From assembly GCA_965198005.1 (NCBI GenBank), contig CBDAOI010000004.1:224001-288000 (forward strand): a stretch of DNA of 64,000 nt, read 5' to 3'. Both the position numbers and the translations under genes were made by a program. The notes under the pieces are model-generated. The model was not told the DNA's origin and made no database searches. It saw only the letters and a program-made list of their open reading frames with translations. This DNA is from Spirochaetia bacterium (lineage in GTDB: Bacteria > Spirochaetota > Spirochaetia > SZUA-6 > Bin103). Below are positions 17,611 to 30,193 of the stretch, one piece after another (position 1 is the stretch's first letter; every line of letters starts with the position of its first letter).

Positions 17611-18417
17611 ATGAGCCAGGAAGACGCGAAAGCCGGCGAAGCGCCGCAAGCGGCAGGCCCGGCCGGCGGATCCGAGGAGCAACCGGCCGCGGCCGTGGCC
17701 GGAACGCCCGAGGCCGCGGAGCGGGCCCCCCGGTCCTCCCGAGCAGCCGCGGCCGGGGAGGGCGCTGCAGCCCCCGGCGGCGTGGCGGGCGGCGCGGCGG
17801 GACGGCCACCGGCTCGTGCGGCCGGCCGTAGTGCGCGCGCGGCCCGCGCCGGTGCCGCCGGCGCCCGCTCCACCGCAGCCGTGAGCGCGCGCCCCGGCGC
17901 CGCCGGGGCCGTGGCTGCGGCCGGCACCGGTGACGTGTCGCGGCGCGGCTTCCTGTCCTGGATCACCGCCGGCTGGCTGGCGTTCGGGGCGCTGACCGCC
18001 GGCACCCTGATCGGGACGGTGCGTTTCCTGTTTCCCAACGTGCTGTTCGAGCCGCCGCAGACCTTCCGCGCCGGGTTCCCCGAGGAGTACACCGTGGGCG
18101 ACGTGTCGACCCGGTTCAAGGACCAGTTCGCCGTGTGGATCGTGCGTACGCCGACCGAGATCTACGTCCTGTCGACCGTCTGCACCCACCTCGGCTGCAC
18201 CCCCAACTGGCTGTCCGGCGAGCAGAAGTTCAAGTGCCCGTGCCACGGCAGCGGGTTCCGCAAGACCGGCATCAACTTCGAGGGCCCGGCGCCGCGGCCG
18301 CTGGAGCGCTACCGCGTGACCATGGCCGACGACGGTCAGATCCTGGTCGACAAGACCCGCAAATACCAGTGGGAGAAGGACGAGTGGAGCGACCCCGAGT
18401 CGTTCCTGGCCGTGTAG
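17611..18417 (+). CDS. Rieske iron-sulfur subunit of bc/b6f-type complex
   Basis: Tat-like SRRGFL, CTHLGC and CPCHGS motifs; long Ala/Gly-rich N-terminus. Confidence 0.95.
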   Translation: MSQEDAKAGEAPQAAGPAGGSEEQPAAAVAGTPEAAERAPRSSRAAAAGEGAAAPGGVAGGAAGRPPARAAGRSARAARAGAAGARSTAAVSARPGAAGAVAAAGTGDVSRRGFLSWITAGWLAFGALTAGTLIGTVRFLFPNVLFEPPQTFRAGFPEEYTVGDVSTRFKDQFAVWIVRTPTEIYVLSTVCTHLGCTPNWLSGEQKFKCPCHGSGFRKTGINFEGPAPRPLERYRVTMADDGQILVDKTRKYQWEKDEWSDPESFLAV

Positions 18418-18455
18418 CGAGCGCAGCATGACGAACACGAGGAGCAAGGCGATCG

Positions 18456-19301
<846 letters not shown>

Positions 19302-19328
19302 AGCGCACCGGGACGCAGGCGTAAGGCG

Positions 19329-20435
19329 ATGCTCAAACAATTCTTCAACTGGGTCTCCAACCCCGCCGTTCTGTTCACGATCTTCATCGTCGGGTTCTTC
19401 TTCGTCTTTCCGCCCGGCGGCAAGCTGTACAAGCTCAACCGCCGCCTGAAGCTCGACCTGCTGTGGACGCCGGCGGGCGGCATCGTGTTCTTCGGGCTGC
19501 TGGCGATCTTCTTCCTGTGGGGCATCACCGACGCCAACTTCCGCCTCATCGTGTTCAAGCCGGACAACATCCCGATCACGGCGCTGCTGTTTCTGGTGCC
19601 GTTCTTCCTCTGGCACTCCATGAAGCAGGCGCGCGAGAACGACCTGCGCGCCGAAAAGGGCGAGCCGCCGCAGGAGGCGCTGGACAACGAGAAGGTGCTG
19701 GTGTGGCCCGACTTGGTGTACGTCGAGTTCATCTCGCTGATCCTGTCGATGGCGCTGATGATCGTCTGGTCGCTGTTCCTCAAGGCGCCGCTGGAGGAGC
19801 CGGCCAACCCGACCGTGTCGCCCAACCCGTCCAAGGCGCCGTGGTACTTCCTCGGCTTGCAGGAGATGCTGGTCTACTACGACCCGTGGCTGGCGGGGGT
19901 GGTGTTGCCGACCCTGATCATCGTCGGGCTGATCGCCATCCCCTACATGGACGTCAACGCCGGCGGCCAGGGGTACTACAGCTACAAGCCGCGCATGAAG
20001 TCGATCAGCATCTTTCTGTTCGGCTTCGTGGTGATGTGGATCTTTCTGATCCTGGTGGGCACCTTCCTGCGCGGCCCCAACTGGAATTTCTTTGGACCAT
20101 TCGAATTCTGGGATCCCAACAAGCGCGAGGTGTTGAACAACGTCAACCTCTCCGAGTACGTCTACATCTTTCTGCTACGCACCGGCTTACCTGAAAATAT
20201 TCTGGTGCGCGAGCTGTTCGGGATTCTGTTGATCCTGGGGTACTTCGCCATCGTCCCGGGGCTGCTGGCGCAGACCGCCTTCAAGCGGCTGTTCCAGCGT
20301 CTGGGGGTGGTACGCTACAGCTTCTTCATCGTGTTGCTGCTGATGGGGCTGGCGCTGCCGATCAAGATGTATACGCGCTGGCTGTTCAACCTGAAGTACA
20401 TCGTCTCGATCCCGGAATTCTTCTTGAACGTATAA
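19329..20435 (+). CDS. Cytochrome b subunit IV-like protein with extra TM helices
   Basis: VWPDL, APLEEPANP, KAPWYFLGLQE (PEWY equivalent). Confidence 0.9.
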   Translation: MLKQFFNWVSNPAVLFTIFIVGFFFVFPPGGKLYKLNRRLKLDLLWTPAGGIVFFGLLAIFFLWGITDANFRLIVFKPDNIPITALLFLVPFFLWHSMKQARENDLRAEKGEPPQEALDNEKVLVWPDLVYVEFISLILSMALMIVWSLFLKAPLEEPANPTVSPNPSKAPWYFLGLQEMLVYYDPWLAGVVLPTLIIVGLIAIPYMDVNAGGQGYYSYKPRMKSISIFLFGFVVMWIFLILVGTFLRGPNWNFFGPFEFWDPNKREVLNNVNLSEYVYIFLLRTGLPENILVRELFGILLILGYFAIVPGLLAQTAFKRLFQRLGVVRYSFFIVLLLMGLALPIKMYTRWLFNLKYIVSIPEFFLNV

Positions 20436-23363
20436 ATGGCAGTCCGTCCTCAACCACCGCCGCCGCCGGAAGAGCGGCACTACAAGATCGGGACCCTCAA
20501 CAAGTGGTTCGCGATCGGCAGCATCGTGCTGCTGATCACCATCATCGCCTCGTTCGCGCAGGATTACGGGCGCGAGTGGAAGCGCTGGCAGCGGCAGTTC
20601 CGGCGCATCGACCGCGAGGTCACGCGCGGCGCGTACGACGAGATGGCGGCCGAGATGGCGAACAGCGCGGCCACGGCGCGGGCGCGCGAGCAGGTAGCCG
20701 CCGCCGAGGAGGCGCTGCAGGCGCGCCAGGACGACGTGCGCGCCGCCGAACGCGAGGTGGACCGCCTGCAGGCGCGGTTCGACGTGGCCAACTCCCGCTT
20801 CCAGAACGTGAAGGCGCAGATGGAGCGCGCCCGTTATCGCGACGAGCAGGCCGCGGCCGGCACCGAGGGGCTGGGCCTGCGGCGCGAACGCACCTCCGGC
20901 GAGCTGGAGCGCTGGCAGACCGAGTTCGCCGGCGCTTCGGTGGCGCAGGAGGAGGCGCAGCTCGCCCTGGAGCAGGCGCAGGCGGCGTTGCAGGGTTTCG
21001 AGGACGAGGTGCGCGCGGCGCGGCGGGCGCGCGATGAGGAGTCGCGCGAGGCCGACCTGTTGATGCGGCGCCTGGTGCGGATGGACCCGGAGTTCTCGCC
21101 CATGGGCGTGAAGATCGCCAACATTATCCGCGACCTGCCGATTCTGGATCTGTCGCAGCCGACGCTGAAGGTGGAGCAGGTGGTCCTGCCCGACGTCAAG
21201 GAGAACCTCAACTTCGTCCAGGTGCCGCGCGTGGACCGGTGCGTGACCTGTCACCTGGGGGTGGACCGCGCCGACCTGGCCGGGATCGAGAACCCGCACG
21301 GGGCGCACCCGCGGCTGGCGCTGTTCGTGGCCAGCGATTCGCCCCATCCGCTGGAGGAGTTCGGCTGCACGAGCTGCCACGGCGGGCGCGGCCGCGCCAC
21401 CGACTTCGTGGGCACGGTGCACCGCCCCGACTCCGAGGAGCAGCTCCACGACTGGGAACGCCGCCTCGGCTGGGAGGAGTACCACCTGTGGGAGGAGCCG
21501 ATGCATCCGCTGCGCTATGCGGAGGCGGGCTGCTTCCAGTGCCACAGCGGCCAGGCGCAGATCCGCGGCGCCGAGAAGCTCAGCTACGGCCTGCACCTGA
21601 TCGAGCAGGCGGGGTGCTACTCGTGTCACGAGATCGCGAGCTTCGCCGGCCATCCGCAGCGCGGCCCCAGCCTGCGCAGCGTGGCGGACAAGCTCTCCCC
21701 CGAATTCGCGTTCCAGTGGATCAAGGACCCCGCCGGGTTCCGCTCCCAGACCTGGATGCCGGCCTACTTCGGCCAGAGCAACAACAGCGACCCCGTGGCC
21801 ATGGCGCGCGCTGATCAGGAAGTGCATGCCATCGTCGCCTACCTGTTCGCCAACAGCACCGAGTATGCAAGGGAGGAAATTCCGGTGGCCGGAGACCCGG
21901 TACGCGGCGAAGAGCTGGTGGCGTCGGTGGGCTGCATGGCGTGTCACGAGACACCGGACGAGACCACCGGCGCCACCGGGCGTACGGTCACCAGCCAGCA
22001 GGAGTTGCGCCGCCAGTTCGGTCCCAACTTCCAGGGGCTGGGCAGCAAGACCTCGGCGCAGTGGGTCTACAACTGGCTCAAGGATCCCTCCCGCTACCAT
22101 CCCGGAACCCGCATGCCCAGCCTGCGGCTGGCCGATCAGGAAGCGGCCGACATCACCGCCTACCTGACGGGCTCCACCGACGCGGCGTTCGCGGGGCGGC
22201 CGGTGCCGGCGGTGGACGAGGCGGTGATCGACCGGATCGCGCTCGACTTCCTGTCCAACACGGCGCCGATGATTACCGCTCAGGACCAGCTCGCGGCCAT
22301 GAACCGCGGAGAGAAGCTGGAGTACGCCGGCGAACGGCTGATCTCCCACTACGGCTGCTTCGCGTGCCACGACATCGCCGGCTTCGAGGACGCGCAGCCG
22401 ATTGGGACCGCGCTCACCGACATCGGCCGCAAGGCCCTGCATCAGTTCGACTACGGCTTTCTCGGCGACCGGATCGAGCACAGCCGTACCTCGTGGTGGA
22501 CGGCCAAGTTGACCGACCCGCGGGTGTTCGACCTGCACCGCGACCTGGAGCCGCTGCAGCAGAGCCGGATGCCCGACTTCCGCCTCACCGACCAGCAGGT
22601 GGAGGCGATGGTCACGGCGCTGGCCGGCTTCGTGGAGCTCGACCCGAACGTCACCAGGATCGTGCCGCGCACGCCGCGCGACCTGCGCCTAGAGACGGGG
22701 CAGCACCTGGTGCGGCAAATGAACTGCCAGGGCTGCCACGTGATCGAGGGCGAGGGCGGCGCGGTGGTGGCGCAGGTGGCCGACTGGCTGGAACGGTTCG
22801 GGGGACGCTCCAGCGCCGATGCCGAGACCCTGGCGCCCAGCTTCGCGCCGCCCGACCTGCTGGGCGAGGGGCGCAAGGTGCAGACCGACTGGCTGTTCGC
22901 GTTTTTCCACCAGCCGTCGCCGATCCGGCCGTGGCTGCGCATGCGCATGCCCAGCTACGGCATGAGCGCCGAGCGCCGCAACGCGCTGATCGCCTACTTC
23001 ACGGCGCTGGACGACGCGGCCTATCCGTTCGCCGAGCAGGTGCAGCCGGAGCTGACGCAGGAGGAACTGGACGCGGCCCTGACCATGTTCTCGCCCAACT
23101 ACTTCAACTGCACCACCTGCCACATCCAGGGCGACCAGGTCCCGCCCGGCACCCCGGACCGCTGGGCGCCCGACTTCGCGCTGGCGTCGCAGCGGCTGCG
23201 TCCCGACTGGATCATCGACTGGCTGGCCGACCCGCAGTCGCTGATGCCCGGCACCCGCATGCCCGCGTTCTACCCGCTCGGCGCACCCGGCGTGCTCGAC
23301 AGCGACACCGCCCACCAGCTCGAAGTCCTGCGCGACTACCTGCTGACCCTGGGGTCACCCTGA
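20436..23363 (+). CDS. Membrane-anchored octaheme cytochrome c with coiled-coil stalk
   Basis: Eight CxxCH motifs counted (CVTCH, CTSCH, CFQCH, CYSCH, CMACH, CFACH, CQGCH, CTTCH). Confidence 0.93.
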   Translation: MAVRPQPPPPPEERHYKIGTLNKWFAIGSIVLLITIIASFAQDYGREWKRWQRQFRRIDREVTRGAYDEMAAEMANSAATARAREQVAAAEEALQARQDDVRAAEREVDRLQARFDVANSRFQNVKAQMERARYRDEQAAAGTEGLGLRRERTSGELERWQTEFAGASVAQEEAQLALEQAQAALQGFEDEVRAARRARDEESREADLLMRRLVRMDPEFSPMGVKIANIIRDLPILDLSQPTLKVEQVVLPDVKENLNFVQVPRVDRCVTCHLGVDRADLAGIENPHGAHPRLALFVASDSPHPLEEFGCTSCHGGRGRATDFVGTVHRPDSEEQLHDWERRLGWEEYHLWEEPMHPLRYAEAGCFQCHSGQAQIRGAEKLSYGLHLIEQAGCYSCHEIASFAGHPQRGPSLRSVADKLSPEFAFQWIKDPAGFRSQTWMPAYFGQSNNSDPVAMARADQEVHAIVAYLFANSTEYAREEIPVAGDPVRGEELVASVGCMACHETPDETTGATGRTVTSQQELRRQFGPNFQGLGSKTSAQWVYNWLKDPSRYHPGTRMPSLRLADQEAADITAYLTGSTDAAFAGRPVPAVDEAVIDRIALDFLSNTAPMITAQDQLAAMNRGEKLEYAGERLISHYGCFACHDIAGFEDAQPIGTALTDIGRKALHQFDYGFLGDRIEHSRTSWWTAKLTDPRVFDLHRDLEPLQQSRMPDFRLTDQQVEAMVTALAGFVELDPNVTRIVPRTPRDLRLETGQHLVRQMNCQGCHVIEGEGGAVVAQVADWLERFGGRSSADAETLAPSFAPPDLLGEGRKVQTDWLFAFFHQPSPIRPWLRMRMPSYGMSAERRNALIAYFTALDDAAYPFAEQVQPELTQEELDAALTMFSPNYFNCTTCHIQGDQVPPGTPDRWAPDFALASQRLRPDWIIDWLADPQSLMPGTRMPAFYPLGAPGVLDSDTAHQLEVLRDYLLTLGSP

Positions 23364-23364
23364 C

Positions 23365-24153
23365 ATGCCGACCTTCGAACAGGGCTTCGCCGCGGTCGAA
23401 GCGGCCGCCGAGGCGGCGGAGGCCGCCGCCAAGAAGTTGGCCGCTACCGCCCGAAGGTTGCGGAGAGCAGCTCAGGAGGGAGCCATTGGCAAGATTCGGC
23501 GTGAGGGTGAGCAGTTCGTCGACGCGCTGGCTACGGCCGGCGAGACGGTAACCGGTGCGACGGCGAGCTGGCCATTCGCAGAGCCCGAGGAGACGGCCTA
23601 TCTGAACGAGCGATACGCAGACGAATTGCGTGGCGCGGCCGCGGCAGTCGGGCTTGATGTCAGCCTCCGTGACGATGCGCTCGTATGTTCGCCGTCCATT
23701 ATCCGACTGCTTCCTGCAGATCGCGCGCTGAAAGTCGACGGCAAGAAGCGCGCGGCCATTCGCCCATCGAGGCTGGTCGCAGATCTGCGTGCGATTCAGC
23801 AACGGATGCGGCCAAAGAGCGACGCCCAACACCAGCGCTTTCTGGAGGCGTTGTACAAGGCGTCAAAGGTAATCCGGGGCAAGTCGACGGATTCCCTGTT
23901 CGACGCCACTCGCGTCGTTTCGCTCGCAGACGTGTACGCGGTGTTTACGTCGCTGCCGGGGAGCAGCTTGCAGTACACGAAGACCGATTTTGCGCGCGAT
24001 ATCTACTTGTTGGACAGCTCATCGATCGCAAGGACCAAATCAGGATCACAAGTGAGCTTCACGGGCTCGGTCAGACAGAGTTCCGGGATCTTCTCGTTCG
24101 TTGACGCCAACGGCAACGTAATCCGCTATTATGGCGTGCAGTTTACGGAGTAA
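23365..24153 (+). CDS. Hypothetical protein, first gene of the ATPase module
   Basis: 262-aa ORF starting 1 nt after the cytochrome stop; helical N-terminus. Confidence 0.8.
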   Translation: MPTFEQGFAAVEAAAEAAEAAAKKLAATARRLRRAAQEGAIGKIRREGEQFVDALATAGETVTGATASWPFAEPEETAYLNERYADELRGAAAAVGLDVSLRDDALVCSPSIIRLLPADRALKVDGKKRAAIRPSRLVADLRAIQQRMRPKSDAQHQRFLEALYKASKVIRGKSTDSLFDATRVVSLADVYAVFTSLPGSSLQYTKTDFARDIYLLDSSSIARTKSGSQVSFTGSVRQSSGIFSFVDANGNVIRYYGVQFTE

Positions 24154-24158
24154 GGCCC

Positions 24159-25109
24159 ATGCACGTAGCTGAGTGGCTTGGAAGGGTCGAGGTGGACTAT
24201 CTCGCTACGTTCATCGAGCAAGGCGGGGCAGCGGTCAAGTTCGTCGTGGGTGACGGCCGGCTGCGATCAGAGGTCTGTTCCGGACTCACTACCGTCGCAG
24301 AGGAGCGCGGGTACTTGGTGCTGAGCGTGAATGCTGCTGAGCATCGGTTCCACATGCCACAGGACATTTTTTTTGCGCTTGCGGCTCAGGTTGACTGGCG
24401 GCTGGCGGCGCGTCGCTTCCTCCTCCAGTTGGCGCAAAGCGAAGGCTACCGAATCGATGGTGTGGAAGCGGCCCAAGAGGACGTGCTGCAGGCCGTTGCC
24501 GAGCGCAACGACGTGTCCAAGGCGTACCTCTTCACGAATCTGAATCCGCGGCTGCAGCGCCAAGTCTTCTTTGACGTGAACATGGCCAAGGATTTCCGCG
24601 TAGCCATGTCCCACTTGTGCGTGTTTGAACGCGCTCCTGACGTACCGTACCCGGGGCAGCCGATCGTCGACTGGCTTACCGGCGCCAACACGCGCATTTC
24701 AAACGTCAAGCCGTTTTCAATCTACAATCCGATAAATCGCACCACGGCACGCCACCTGCTGCGATCCGCCTGCTACTGGTTCCACAAGGCCGGCTATCCG
24801 GGGACGGTGCTGGTGCTCGACAACGCCCGAGTTACAGAACGGAAACGGCCGGCTGATGGATCGCGGTACTACACCAGAGCCATGACCATGGACCACTACG
24901 AGATACTGCGCGAATTCATCGACGGCGCGGACCGGCTGGTCGCAACCTTGCTCGTATCCTGCTCGGACGGTGCGTTTCTGGATCAGGAAGCCGATCGGCA
25001 GTCACGCGGAGTAGGCATTTACCCAGCCTTGCAGACCAGGATCATCGATGATGTGCGCGACAAACGGATGGAGAATCCATCAGCGGCGCTATGCCGGTTG
25101 ACGATTTAG
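24159..25109 (+). CDS. BrxD/DUF2791-like protein with degenerate P-loop
   Basis: QGGAAVKFVVG without GK(T/S); VLVLDN; YEILREFID; YPALQTRI. Confidence 0.7.
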   Translation: MHVAEWLGRVEVDYLATFIEQGGAAVKFVVGDGRLRSEVCSGLTTVAEERGYLVLSVNAAEHRFHMPQDIFFALAAQVDWRLAARRFLLQLAQSEGYRIDGVEAAQEDVLQAVAERNDVSKAYLFTNLNPRLQRQVFFDVNMAKDFRVAMSHLCVFERAPDVPYPGQPIVDWLTGANTRISNVKPFSIYNPINRTTARHLLRSACYWFHKAGYPGTVLVLDNARVTERKRPADGSRYYTRAMTMDHYEILREFIDGADRLVATLLVSCSDGAFLDQEADRQSRGVGIYPALQTRIIDDVRDKRMENPSAALCRLTI

Positions 25110-25118
25110 GAACAGAGC

Positions 25119-26366
25119 ATGGAAGACCTTCCTGAACAGCTTGCATGTCGTCGCGCCATAGAGGCGTTGCGCAACGGCGTTCCCAATCGGGAGGCGGTGC
25201 GCATTCTCGGGAGCACGCAGCCGCAGGCGGAGCAGCAGTTCCAGGCACGCTTAAGCCAGGGAGGAGCAGACAATCTGGGCGGCATGCTGATCTCCGGTGA
25301 CTTCGGCACCGGCAAGTCGCATCTGCTGGAGCATTTTGAGCACCTCGCGCTGGACCGAAACTTCGTCTGCAGTCGGGTTGCCGTAAGCAAAGAGACGCCG
25401 TTCTACGACTTGGCAAAGATGTTTCGCGCGGCGGCCGACAACGGTGCTCTCCCCGACGGCAGAGTGGGCGCCATGGTCGACGAGATCGGGACCCGGCTGG
25501 CGGGTCCCAAAGACGAACGTTACGCTCGGTTCTTCAGGTGGGCGGATGCTTCCGACAATGGGCTGCACCGCATCTTCCCTGCTACGCTGATGGTGCACGA
25601 ACGGCTGCCGGACCAGGAGGCACTCAACGCGATCAGGTGGTTCTGGTCCGGTGACAGGGTGGCCGTGGGTGACATAAAGCGAGGCCTCCGTCAGATCGGC
25701 CAACAAGGCGCCTACACGTTCCGCGCTCCGAAGCTCCGCGAACTGCCACCGCAACGTCTACGCTTCGTACTGGAGATGATCAAGACGGCCGGCTATCGTG
25801 GCTGGGTGGTGCTCATTGACGAGTTGGAGCTGATCGGCAGCTACAGCCTGCTGCAGCGTGCGCGATCGTACGCGGAACTGGCCCGTTGGATGGGCGCGGC
25901 GGACGACGACTCGTATCCCGGGCTGGTGGTCGTGGCGGCCATCACGGAGGACTTCGTCGAGGCGATCCTGGAGAAGAAGGGAGACCGCCTCAAGGTACCA
26001 GCGCGGCTGCGTGAGCGTGATGAAGCACGCATGGCGCGGCAGGCAGAACTCGGTATGCAATGGCTCACCTCACGTCGCGCAAGGCTGAGCGAGGTGACCG
26101 ACGACGCGGTGGAAGCCGCGGTCGAGCACATCAGACGCATCTACAGCCGGGCATACGACTGGGCTCCACCAGCCGGTACGGCTGCCATTGGCGGTGCCGG
26201 CCACCAGAAGCGGATGCGGTACAAAGTACGCGCTGCTATCACCACGTGGGATCTGCAGCGGTTGCGCCCGGACTCTGACCCCGATGTGGAGACCGAGGAG
26301 TACCACCTGACGTACCGCGAGGATCACGACCTTGAAGTCGAGGCCCCGGAAGACTCGACGACCTGA
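25119..26366 (+). CDS. BrxD/DUF2791-like P-loop ATPase
   Basis: IEALRNGVP, Walker A GDFGTGKS, Walker B VVLIDELE. Confidence 0.85.
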   Translation: MEDLPEQLACRRAIEALRNGVPNREAVRILGSTQPQAEQQFQARLSQGGADNLGGMLISGDFGTGKSHLLEHFEHLALDRNFVCSRVAVSKETPFYDLAKMFRAAADNGALPDGRVGAMVDEIGTRLAGPKDERYARFFRWADASDNGLHRIFPATLMVHERLPDQEALNAIRWFWSGDRVAVGDIKRGLRQIGQQGAYTFRAPKLRELPPQRLRFVLEMIKTAGYRGWVVLIDELELIGSYSLLQRARSYAELARWMGAADDDSYPGLVVVAAITEDFVEAILEKKGDRLKVPARLRERDEARMARQAELGMQWLTSRRARLSEVTDDAVEAAVEHIRRIYSRAYDWAPPAGTAAIGGAGHQKRMRYKVRAAITTWDLQRLRPDSDPDVETEEYHLTYREDHDLEVEAPEDSTT

Positions 26367-26406
26367 TGTGTCGGCGTGCGCCATGATGGGGAAGACAACA
26401 CGTTAA

Positions 26407-27003
26407 CTGGGCACTCTGAGGCCGTTCAGCGACATCGCAGGGCGCCATGTCTTACGGCTAAACAATACTCCTCAGCAGCGTCAGCAGCTTGCGCAGCGAT
26501 TGCAGGCCGCTGGTTGTCCGGTGAAACTGGACGGAACTGACTGGCAGACTCAGGGTGACTTTGATGCAGCTCTCAAGTTGGCGCAAGTGTCGCGTGATTC
26601 AGCAGTGACAGTCGAAGATCCGCAACTCACTACAGAGGCAAAACACGTACTTAGCGAAGCGGCACTGGATGCTGATCGGATGATACACAAGATCAGGACC
26701 CTCGGTGGCATGGAAATCAGGACCCATGGCACGACATTCGGAACAATGGGTGACCCTGAGTCGGAAGCAAACTGGGAAGGAGCTCTTGGTGAGCTGGTGG
26801 AGCGGGGACTTGCCAAAGACAAGAATAACAAGGACACAGTTTTCCTGGTGACCCGTGAAGGTTTTCGAGTTGCGCGGCAACTGTCGAATGGTGCGTCACA
26901 ACGAGCCTACTCAACCCCTTCCGACTATCCGGACATGGAGCGTTTGAGCCACGCAATCGTGCAGTTCCTCGGGCTGCGAAAGACCACGGTCGCCACCGTG
27001 TAG
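26407..27003 (+). pseudogene. 5'-truncated CAP12/Pycsar-type TIR-like protein with C-terminal extension
   Basis: The frame opens after TAA 26404 with LRPFSDIAGRHVLRLNNT...LAQRLQAAGC..GTDW, resembling the end of this TIR family. Confidence 0.65.
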
Positions 27004-27083: not shown

Positions 27084-27557
27084 TCAGCGGCGGGTGTCGC
27101 CCGAGCGGGCGCTCTGCGCGGCCTGAATGTCCGGGGGCCAGTGGCTCTTGATGTATGCAAGCACGGCCCATACGTCGCCGTCGTCCAGTACGTCCTCGTA
27201 TACCGGCATGGCACTCTTGAAGCCTGGGCCGGCCACGGAGGCAGAGCCGAACTTGGTGATCCGGAACAGGATCTGATCGGAATGGTGCCAAGTGTGGCCG
27301 GTTACGTCGTGGGGCGGCGCCGGCAGGGTACCGTCGGGCTTCATCTGCCGCCAGTTCGGCTGCCCTTCGAGACGCAGGCCGTGACAGGATGCGCAGTTCT
27401 CCTGGTAGACGATCCGGCCGCGCGCCACCAGCTTCGCGTCGCTGGCGTCGGCTTGGTCGGGTTCGTCGTTCTGGCGTACGACGTAGCCCGCCGCGGCGAG
27501 GATCGCGGCCGCCGTCAAAGCGGTAACGGTGATGATGGTGAGGACGCGTCTGCTCAT
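27084..27557 (-). CDS. Monoheme cytochrome c
   Basis: N-terminal TM, CASCHG, APPHDVTGHTWHH, SAMP. Confidence 0.92.
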   Translation of the reverse strand: MSRRVLTIITVTALTAAAILAAAGYVVRQNDEPDQADASDAKLVARGRIVYQENCASCHGLRLEGQPNWRQMKPDGTLPAPPHDVTGHTWHHSDQILFRITKFGSASVAGPGFKSAMPVYEDVLDDGDVWAVLAYIKSHWPPDIQAAQSARSGDTRR

Positions 27558-27583
27558 GCGACTCGGCAAGGGGCAATGGACCT

Positions 27584-27605
27584 CACCCCCCTGGGGTATT
27601 ATACT
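27584..27605. promoter_or_regulatory. Putative CsoR operator overlapping divergent -10 boxes
   Basis: ACCCCCCTGGGGTAT C/G-tract pseudo-palindrome; TATACT on + and TATAAT on -. Confidence 0.65.
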
Positions 27606-27635
27606 GGTTTTGTGCCCTTGCAGGAAATGGCAGGA

Positions 27636-27947
27636 ATGACGGCCGACCGCAGCGATGACACCGCCACCCGCCGCGGCCCCCATCCGGTCGACGAAGCCGC
27701 GTTGCGCCGGTTGCGCAGTATCGAGGGGCAAGTCTCCGGGATTCGCCGTATGATCGAGGAAGAGCGCTACTGTACCGACATCCTGACTCAGGTGTCCGCC
27801 GTGCGTGCCGCCCTCAACTCCCTCGGGTTGACCGTGCTCAAACGCCATCTCGACCACTGCGTGGCTGACGCCGCCCGCAGCAACGACCGGGAATTGCCGC
27901 AGGTGGTAGACGAGCTGATGGCGGTGCTGGCGCGGACCAGCTTCTGA
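27636..27947 (+). CDS. csoR: Copper-sensing repressor CsoR
   Basis: [19 protein letters not shown] and HLDHC motifs. Confidence 0.92.
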
Positions 27948-27949
27948 CC

Positions 27950-30193
<2,244 letters not shown>

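Follow-up and report, generated by a model that had tools for sequence, protein, structure and literature searches.

Organisation of the locus

The subject of this work is a set of three adjacent genes from a Spirochaetia bacterium (assembly GCA_965198005.1). The genes lie in a stretch of 64,000 nucleotides (nt), positions 224,001 to 288,000 of the forward strand of contig CBDAOI010000004.1, which we refer to as the window. The three open reading frames (ORFs) are named A, for an adaptor-like protein of no named family, B, for a dead ATPase, and C, for a live ATPase. Both ATPases resemble BrxD, a component of BREX defence systems. A fourth gene, D, encodes a SNF2 helicase and occurs in relatives only. 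The coordinates of the trio, with product lengths in amino acids (aa), are as follows.

23365-24153, + strand, gene A: ORF, 262 aa, no named family
24159-25109, + strand, gene B: ORF, 316 aa, PF10923 match, degenerate BrxD-like pseudo-ATPase
25119-26366, + strand, gene C: ORF, 415 aa, PF10923 match, BrxD-like P-loop ATPase (ORC/Cdc6-type AAA+)

An initial annotation, made from the sequence alone, described three tightly spaced ORFs. Re-deriving these from the sequence gave the same gaps, of 5 nt between A and B and 9 nt between B and C. Shine-Dalgarno-like sites are located 9 nt 5' of the ATG of B (GGAG) and 8 nt 5' of the ATG of C (AGGAA). Upstream, the trio is flanked by a respiratory operon; on the downstream side are a TIR remnant, CsoR and CopA. 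As annotated, genes for PglX, PglZ or a helicase are missing beside the trio, from the ORF translations and the Pfam and PADLOC matches of the window flanks.

A, B and C form a conserved unit

One genome per species was searched with an alignment of A homologues. This gave 74 loci, all in metagenome-assembled genomes, from about ten phyla. The presence of each gene was scored by tblastn with the window proteins. Genes A and B were found in all 74 loci and gene C in 73, in the order A-B-C without exception. The only locus without C (L063) is cut off by a contig end. That the trio recurs in 74 of 74 related loci far exceeds any chance expectation. The window has the arrangement that defines the cassette; A, a dead ATPase and a live ATPase are encoded on one strand with short gaps. 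The initial proposal that the genes form one unit, containing a live and a dead BrxD-like ATPase, is thus upheld by a gene order kept in every locus. Furthermore, the pairwise identities of A, B and C are correlated (r 0.88-0.93). Hence, the three proteins evolve together.

In trees of C (70 rows) and of the concatenated A, B and C sequences (68 rows, 996 columns) the phyla are freely mixed. Those intermixed are Spirochaetota, Chloroflexota, Acidobacteriota, Binatota, Pseudomonadota, Actinomycetota and Thermodesulfobacteriota. The mixing of phyla in both trees indicates horizontal transfer. Thus, on phylogenetic grounds, the cassette evidently moves between phyla.

One ATPase has intact motifs and the other has lost them

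Proteins B and C are both members of the Pfam PF10923 (BrxC_BrxD) superfamily by the gathering cut-off of 22.2 bits. The match to B spans residues 18-315 (E 2.8e-9, 36.8 bits) and B also matches the PADLOC BrxD model (E 1.6e-9). The match to C has an E value of 1.4e-22 (80.7 bits), and AAA_16 was also matched. Conversely, the NCBIfam equivalog for BrxD (NF033438) has a cut-off of 350 bits; C scores 67 and B 33.6, and neither qualifies.

The Walker A (SGDFGTGKSH) and Walker B (VVLIDELEL) motifs of C are each at least 95% conserved in 70 orthologues. These sequences fit the patterns of an active P-loop/AAA+ ATPase (GxxGxGK[ST] and hhhhDE), neither of which is found in B. In B, GxxGxGK[ST] is absent and LDN occupies the position of DE in Walker B. 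Residues ~31-50, at which a P-loop would be expected, are unconserved across 72 orthologues. Hence, the contrast drawn in the initial annotation, between an ATPase lacking the Walker A lysine and one with intact GDFGTGKS and LIDE, extends to the orthologues. Protein B carries 31 invariant residues of its own across orthologues. Alignment of B with C using hhalign was confined to 44 columns around Walker B (probability 33%, E 4.5e-4). Judged by these sequences, B appears to be an old and strongly diverged dead paralogue, not a recent pseudogene.

A search with C returned 2138 clusters at E<=1e-5 among 8000 candidates scored, none of which is named. Against PDB sequences, the A, B and C profiles had no more than marginal matches, to P-loops or coiled coils. 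The best match of the C profile was the AAA+ ATPase TnsC (E 0.0075), and in one locus (L035) the trio is followed by a DDE transposase. The trio might, on this basis, belong to a mobile element as a TnsC/TniB-like ATPase module for target selection or transposition. We regard this as highly improbable; the TnsC match comprises 49 residues around the P-loop, and neither transposases nor integrases recur among the neighbours.

Stand-alone ORFs of 106 aa, 46-50% identical to residues 348-413 of C, are present in relatives at the following positions (genome, contig, coordinates).

G014:C2:1539876-1540073
G018:C1:3647204-3647401
G020:C3:855705-855899
G023:C1:903191-903385
G023:C2:12661-12858

This suggests that the C-terminal part of C may constitute a domain in its own right, which also occurs as a free-standing small protein. 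The source genome encodes a second, weaker PF10923-like ATPase of 365 aa (L088, G000:C4:1798000-1814000) beside an anonymous 677-aa protein. A reverse transcriptase, a SocA/Panacea antitoxin-like ORF, a helix-turn-helix protein and a MazE-like ORF are located nearby.

Many relatives carry a fourth gene

Clustering of the flanking ORFs revealed a single recurrent neighbour, a gene of ~700 aa directly 3' of C. Its product, D, is a SNF2 helicase by its matches to PF00176 (E 2e-43) and Helicase_C (E 4e-21). The tally of D was restricted to the 73 loci that extend past C. In 43 of these D follows C; the other 30, among them the window and all 8 Spirochaetia loci, lack it. The helicase core of D matches the PADLOC models ZorD (E 1.4e-76), DpdE (E 2.5e-62) and DrmD (E 1.5e-38). 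The N-terminal 250 aa are poorly conserved and variable; this domain has no Pfam family and gave nothing usable in the ESM Atlas.

The initial annotation presented the trio as a stand-alone system. The three genes do constitute one unit, which lacks D in 30 of 73 loci. However, because 43 relatives carry the SNF2 gene, we no longer regard the trio as a system of its own kind, but as the D-less form of a larger cassette. It was also asked whether homologous trios need a downstream helicase or nuclease; the SNF2 gene follows 43 of them and 30 do without. The annotation would have been overturned if homologues always belonged to a larger described system. Instead, many loci are D-less, these copies are under purifying selection (see below) and the larger cassette is undescribed. 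No account of it was found in the literature, although the supplementary tables of PMC12839542, outside the search, might list such loci.

The presence of D changes 5 times on the C tree and 5 times on the ABC tree. Well-supported branches force at least 3 of these changes for C and at least 4 for ABC. Thus, D has evidently been lost or gained repeatedly, as read from the trees. All deep branches carry D, with the root not inferred, and for this reason repeated loss of D is the simplest reading. Genes past C in D-less loci are diverse and mostly ordinary. They encode glyoxalase, HlyD/AcrB, SelB, TetR, transposase, DUF3800 and DUF1998-type helicase proteins, and among them no substitute partner for D is evident.

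A copy of D elsewhere in the source genome (4.89 Mb, 4 contigs, 90% complete) was not detected; there were 0 matches to the D N-terminal domain at E<=1. The other SNF2 genes of this genome match D in the helicase core only, with 35-36% identity. Across 24 genomes of the same family, all SNF2 matches were at most 38% identical and none extended to the N-terminal part of D. The same SNF2 paralogues are found in these 24 genomes with or without ABC.

Two variations on the cassette were seen. In a gammaproteobacterial subclade, an extra ORF of 341-344 aa, with no Pfam family, lies between C and D (L051:10302-11336 and L054:13014-14039), and a trace of it is present at L060:13031-13240. In two Bryobacterales loci, a DpdE-like SNF2 helicase (1376-1382 aa, PADLOC E 2.4e-175) is encoded directly 5' of A, besides D downstream. 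The coordinates are given below.

L062:5656-9801, DpdE-like helicase upstream of A
L069:5640-9770, DpdE-like helicase upstream of A

Purifying selection on the trio and decay of a TIR gene

We compared the window with the 8 Spirochaetia loci, pairwise, by the ratio of nonsynonymous to synonymous substitution rates (dN/dS). For A, dN/dS was 0.14-0.24 with dS of 0.6-1.7. Values for B were 0.10-0.21 (dS 0.7-1.6) and for C 0.08-0.18 (dS 0.6-1.4). These values show that A, B and C have been kept by purifying selection without a cognate D in the lineage of the window, which covers two Spirochaetia genera; the argument is one from substitution patterns.

The gene next to C has fared differently. In L001, the closest relative (86.6% nucleotide identity across the locus), C is followed by an intact gene for a 321-aa TIR protein of CAP12/Pycsar type (PF10137, E 9e-25; L001:13081-14043). 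The window retains the following.

26407-26586, + strand, TIR remnant, identified by tblastn and blastn against L001: neighbour of the trio, not a member

The TIR remnant noted at first is hence confirmed, and corresponds only to residues 222-281 of the L001 protein (tblastn 73% identity, E 1e-17; blastn synteny). About 730 bp have been lost, including the TIR domain. In L003 the TIR gene has been cut to its two ends, with deletion of the TIR domain (L003:13102-13458). The gene was thus broken by two different deletions, which represent independent decays beside an intact trio. Selection has held ABC while an adjoining defence-type gene rotted twice. Past C there is also an ORF of 167 aa (26500-27003; TTG start, GC content about 0.55). 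The TIR gene tail accounts for its first 29 residues, and the remainder has no Pfam, PADLOC or NCBIfam family.

The trio could be a decaying leftover, a non-functional fragment of a four-gene cassette after loss of the helicase. Carriage of D by all deep branches makes D probably ancestral, a few copies of the cassette look damaged, with frameshifts or truncations (L005, L064, L047 and L071) and the next gene is itself a remnant. However, the window and 7 of 8 Spirochaetia loci have intact ORFs for A, B and C, at dS of 0.6-1.7 and dN/dS of 0.08-0.24. The adjacent TIR gene was destroyed twice over the same time. Moreover, D-less forms originated on several occasions and still account for 30 of 73 loci. 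The selection data largely refute decay, which we consider very unlikely.

An accessory insert at a fixed site

The ATG of A is 1 nt past the stop codon of a cytochrome c gene. The features that define this site are listed below.

20436-23363, upstream of A, multihaem cytochrome c gene: ORF, 975 aa, last gene of the Rieske/cytochrome b operon
23365-27003, strand not assigned, low-GC accessory stretch (0.55-0.63) from the respiratory operon to the CsoR/CopA genes, defined by composition and by the empty site in genome G007

The respiratory gene after which the trio was said to be inserted by 1 nt is therefore the one encoding this 975-aa protein. The statement that the trio is richer in AT is likewise correct. 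The GC content is 0.58-0.63 across 23500-26500 and ~0.55 just past the trio, against 0.68-0.73 upstream and 0.70-0.75 from 28000 onward.

Full-length C was found in the source genome and in 12 of 40 relatives, comprising 7 of 10 genomes from the same genus and 5 of 13 from the sister genus. Three further sister-genus genomes have only a 106-aa ORF like the C-terminus of C. In other families of the order, C was absent from all 17 genomes. In G007 (same genus, one contig, 97% complete) the same cytochrome c gene is followed by ~116 bp and then by a 1636-aa gene. This is the gene found beyond the trio in L003 and L007. Hence, the cassette-bearing 3.8 kb of L003 and the ~116 bp of G007 represent a clean presence/absence difference, and G007 has an empty site. 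The trio, as initially supposed, is by this comparison an accessory insert.

In the same genus the site is fixed, directly past the cytochrome c gene, in 6 loci (window, L001, L002, L003, L004 and L007). Such a position would suit a housekeeping or regulatory module for DNA transactions, such as repair, chromosome maintenance or control of the respiratory operon, with no part in immunity. We think this unlikely, and return to it as further evidence arises. The cassette is patchy within one family and absent from G007 at an otherwise identical locus. In the sister genus and in other phyla it is found in unrelated contexts, with transfer between phyla evident, and its GC content is atypical. Furthermore, its only named relatives are defence proteins (BrxD).

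The respiratory operon (17611-23363) encodes a Rieske protein, cytochrome b, a second membrane subunit and the 975-aa multihaem cytochrome c. On the other side, a c-type cytochrome ORF (27084-27971, - strand) overlaps a 268-aa ORF on the + strand. The latter is CsoR/RicR-like in its last ~80 residues only, and is probably over-extended. A copper P-type ATPase (27950-30193) follows the CsoR/RicR-like ORF.

Expression of the trio

The stretch is present in 17 public runs from 6 studies, 4 of which are sponge metatranscriptome libraries from one study. These 4 libraries contain short contigs that align with 0 differences to A, B and C, to the B/C junction and to the cytochrome c gene. This is no more than a hint that the trio is expressed. 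The coverage of both the cytochrome c gene and the trio is in line with a housekeeping role. So too is the promoter and terminator scan, which gave nothing above shuffled expectation; no promoter- or terminator-like site separates A from the cytochrome c gene.

An RNA-library contig also covers 26564-26847, within the 167-aa ORF. A contig of run X14 (23234-23350) tracks the end of the cytochrome c gene and then diverges, apparently into a variant A-type start. It presumably derives from a related strain with the same arrangement.

Structure and possible role of protein A

The first gene was described initially as a 262-aa protein of no recognised kind, and A indeed has no family in the Pfam, NCBIfam or PADLOC profile libraries. 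A sequence search recovered 68 clusters of homologues, none named. A profile search found 923 clusters (50% identity) at E<=1e-3 and 301 at E<=1e-30, nearly all of ~260 aa. Only unnamed clusters were found in the ESM Atlas.

AlphaFold models of A had a predicted local confidence (pLDDT) of 89.1 at full length, and of 88.9 for residues 68-262, with a predicted TM score (pTM) of 0.83. The model consists of an N-terminal helical hairpin (4-66), a small alpha/beta domain (~72-148) and a winged-helix-like C-terminal domain (~151-262). The strongest-conserved motif, Y..TDFARD, has TDFARD at positions 207-212, within modelled helix 206-218. This would be the recognition helix of the winged-helix-like domain.

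Foldseek searches of the PDB with full-length A and with residues 68-262 returned nothing at E<=1e-3. In an exhaustive structural scan with VIA-align, the middle domain gave a weak frataxin-like match (Z 6.6). The ~151-262 region matched many winged-helix chains, with weak Z scores of 5-6 (ORC, RPC62, kleisin C-terminal domains and histone H1). Full-length A matched coiled-coil look-alikes only. With low confidence, the model suggests that A may be a DNA- or partner-binding adaptor. A PD-(D/E)xK nuclease (D103, then D125-x-K/R127) was considered and rejected; the lysine is variable and the nuclease fold is absent from the structural scan.

Genes surrounding the cassette

On either flank of the cassette, the two closest ORFs with a length of at least 120 aa were classed as near. 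The resulting 286 ORFs were reduced to 224, one per sequence cluster. With a PADLOC cut-off of E<=1e-15, 18 of the 224 matched. These include Tiamat TmtA, Menshen NsnB, DISARM DrmB, Druantia DruE, HmaC and a type I methyltransferase. Cas5/6g and Cas8g, a DpdE-like helicase and a TIR protein were further matches. Two of the 18 may be housekeeping proteins (PolA-like and UvrD-like). A rough control was drawn from the outer 3.5 kb of these loci, where deduplication left 152 ORFs, 146 of which were used. The neighbourhood points to defence islands in a manner that is suggestive, not decisive, and the lack of significant enrichment is compatible with the housekeeping alternative.

The source genome contains a single ORF with a PglZ domain, of 550 aa. 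It is located in an island at G000:C4:902000-918000 (L087), ~660 kb from the trio, which also encodes an XPB-like helicase, RelA_SpoT-like and GmrSD_N-like ORFs and a DUF6079 fragment. It could be argued, from this PglZ-domain ORF and its RelA_SpoT-like, GmrSD_N-like and DUF6079 neighbours, that the trio is a trans-acting accessory of a BREX-like system elsewhere in the genome. This is highly improbable. The PglZ ORF is not linked to the trio, C is far under the BrxD equivalog cut-off, and PglZ, PglX and BrxC are not recurrent neighbours in the 74 loci. In addition, BrxD of real type 2 BREX adjoins BrxHI, according to PMC12839542.

Proposed function of the cassette

On sequence evidence, the trio appears to be neither BREX nor a rotting fragment, but the conserved core of an unnamed ATPase(-helicase) cassette. 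We somewhat favour the view that it is a functional, D-less member of a horizontally mobile cassette family whose role is most likely defence against phages or plasmids. That role is plausible, and follows by inference from the relatives and context described above.

Several observations weigh against this view. First, some copies of the cassette look damaged; the C gene is spread over two frames in L005 and L047, as is the B gene in L064, and A, B and C are all truncated in L071. In L021, D is split into 180 and 727 aa. In any of these five loci the damage could instead be due to sequencing errors. Second, B and C resemble each other only weakly. Third, neither the profile libraries, for A, B and C, nor the structure searches, for A, revealed a nuclease, NADase or other effector fold. 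Fourth, many D-less loci lie amid housekeeping genes (glyoxalase, AcrB/HlyD, SelB and TetR), and the single chromosomal site in the genus, 1 nt past a respiratory gene, would also fit a housekeeping role. The same role is favoured by the absence of the cassette from the plasmid (tblastn of C) and viral (C alignment scan) collections searched. Fifth, RNA-library contigs may contain DNA and cannot demonstrate transcripts. Finally, PADLOC matches among near ORFs (18 of 224) do not significantly exceed those among far ORFs (6 of 146; odds ratio 2.0, Fisher p 0.19), in a within-locus control with no genome-wide baseline.

If the cassette does act in defence, the following mechanism can be envisaged. 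The family comprises, in order, A (a putative coiled-coil and winged-helix adaptor), dead B, live C and usually D (a SNF2 translocase with a variable N-terminal domain). By analogy, B and C may form a hetero-oligomer in which C alone burns ATP. Protein A would tether the B/C pair to DNA via its winged helix, and the A-B-C complex would scan DNA for molecules that are foreign or aberrant. Where D is present, the complex might load or activate the SNF2 motor on foreign DNA, as proposed for BrxD-BrxHI in PMC12839542. For the three-gene form there are two options. The ATPase complex could block replication of foreign DNA, like nuclease-free BREX-type systems. Alternatively, it could signal to unlinked effectors. 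A bolder version, which we advance tentatively and consider rather doubtful, is that ABC alone would be a complete minimal immune module, in which an ORC-like pair of live and dead ATPases, with a winged-helix adaptor, would recognise and neutralise foreign DNA without nuclease or helicase. A SNF2 helicase or TIR protein elsewhere would then be an exchangeable add-on effector.

What the window contributes is the three-gene form, and evidence for its maintenance by selection. Its lineage is a natural experiment; the helicase is gone, the TIR gene has rotted and selection has retained the ATPase pair and adaptor. Retention of the trio under these circumstances indicates that the dead/live BrxD-like pair and the adaptor may be the functional core. 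If the cassette is a defence system then it is widespread, with 923 A clusters and >2000 C-like clusters, and is unnamed in databases. Moreover, a three-gene system makes it possible to test what BrxD-type ATPases do in BREX-like immunity, where their role is poorly understood.

Comparison with known systems

From profile matching, the cassette is seemingly unnamed in the Pfam, NCBIfam and PADLOC libraries. Shango consists of SngA, a TerB protein, SngB, an ATPase, and SngC, a helicase. Like the four-gene cassette, it combines an ATPase, a helicase and a third protein, and the PADLOC SngB model matches C (E 2.3e-6). However, this match covers residues 56-92 of C (37 residues, the P-loop), A has no TerB domain and a SngC-type helicase is absent. 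The helicases of Zorya (ZorD), Dpd (DpdE) and DISARM (DrmD) match the core of D in four-gene relatives. The likeness is limited to that core; the partner genes of these systems do not recur, and D is missing in the window. We thus rejected membership of the trio in Shango, Zorya, Dpd or DISARM, since their defining partners are absent.

The BREX type 2 (Pgl) locus contains the PglX methyltransferase, PglZ, PglY/BrxC, PglW, BrxD and BrxHI. The trio is without PglX, PglZ, PglY and PglW, and PADLOC gives only BrxD-like matches for B and C. With the low equivalog scores of C and B, and no BREX core gene adjacent, membership of BREX was also rejected, in keeping with the original non-BREX assignment. 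Furthermore, the cassette has a duplicated ATPase, one live and one dead, and the extra adaptor A. Its helicase, where present, is SNF2-type and not Ski2/Lhr-like, and the window has none. The resemblance lies in the tight linkage, in four-gene relatives, of a BrxD-type ATPase to an SF2 helicase. PMC12839542 describes BrxD as an AAA+ ATPase of the ORC/Cdc6 type, whose gene is paired tightly with that of the BrxHI helicase in type 2 BREX, and BrxD is proposed there as the loader or activator of that helicase.

In type 1 BREX the closest parallel is with BrxB, an inactive STAND protein, and BrxC, an active ATPase. The BrxC protein differs in having ~1200 aa with extra domains, and is comparable at the sequence level by PF10923 only; the PADLOC BrxC match to C is restricted to the P-loop (E 0.008). 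The likeness is one of design, in that a nuclease-poor system contains a dead, ORC/STAND-like P-loop protein and a live one. This pair is described as a sensor plus scaffold in PMC12839542.

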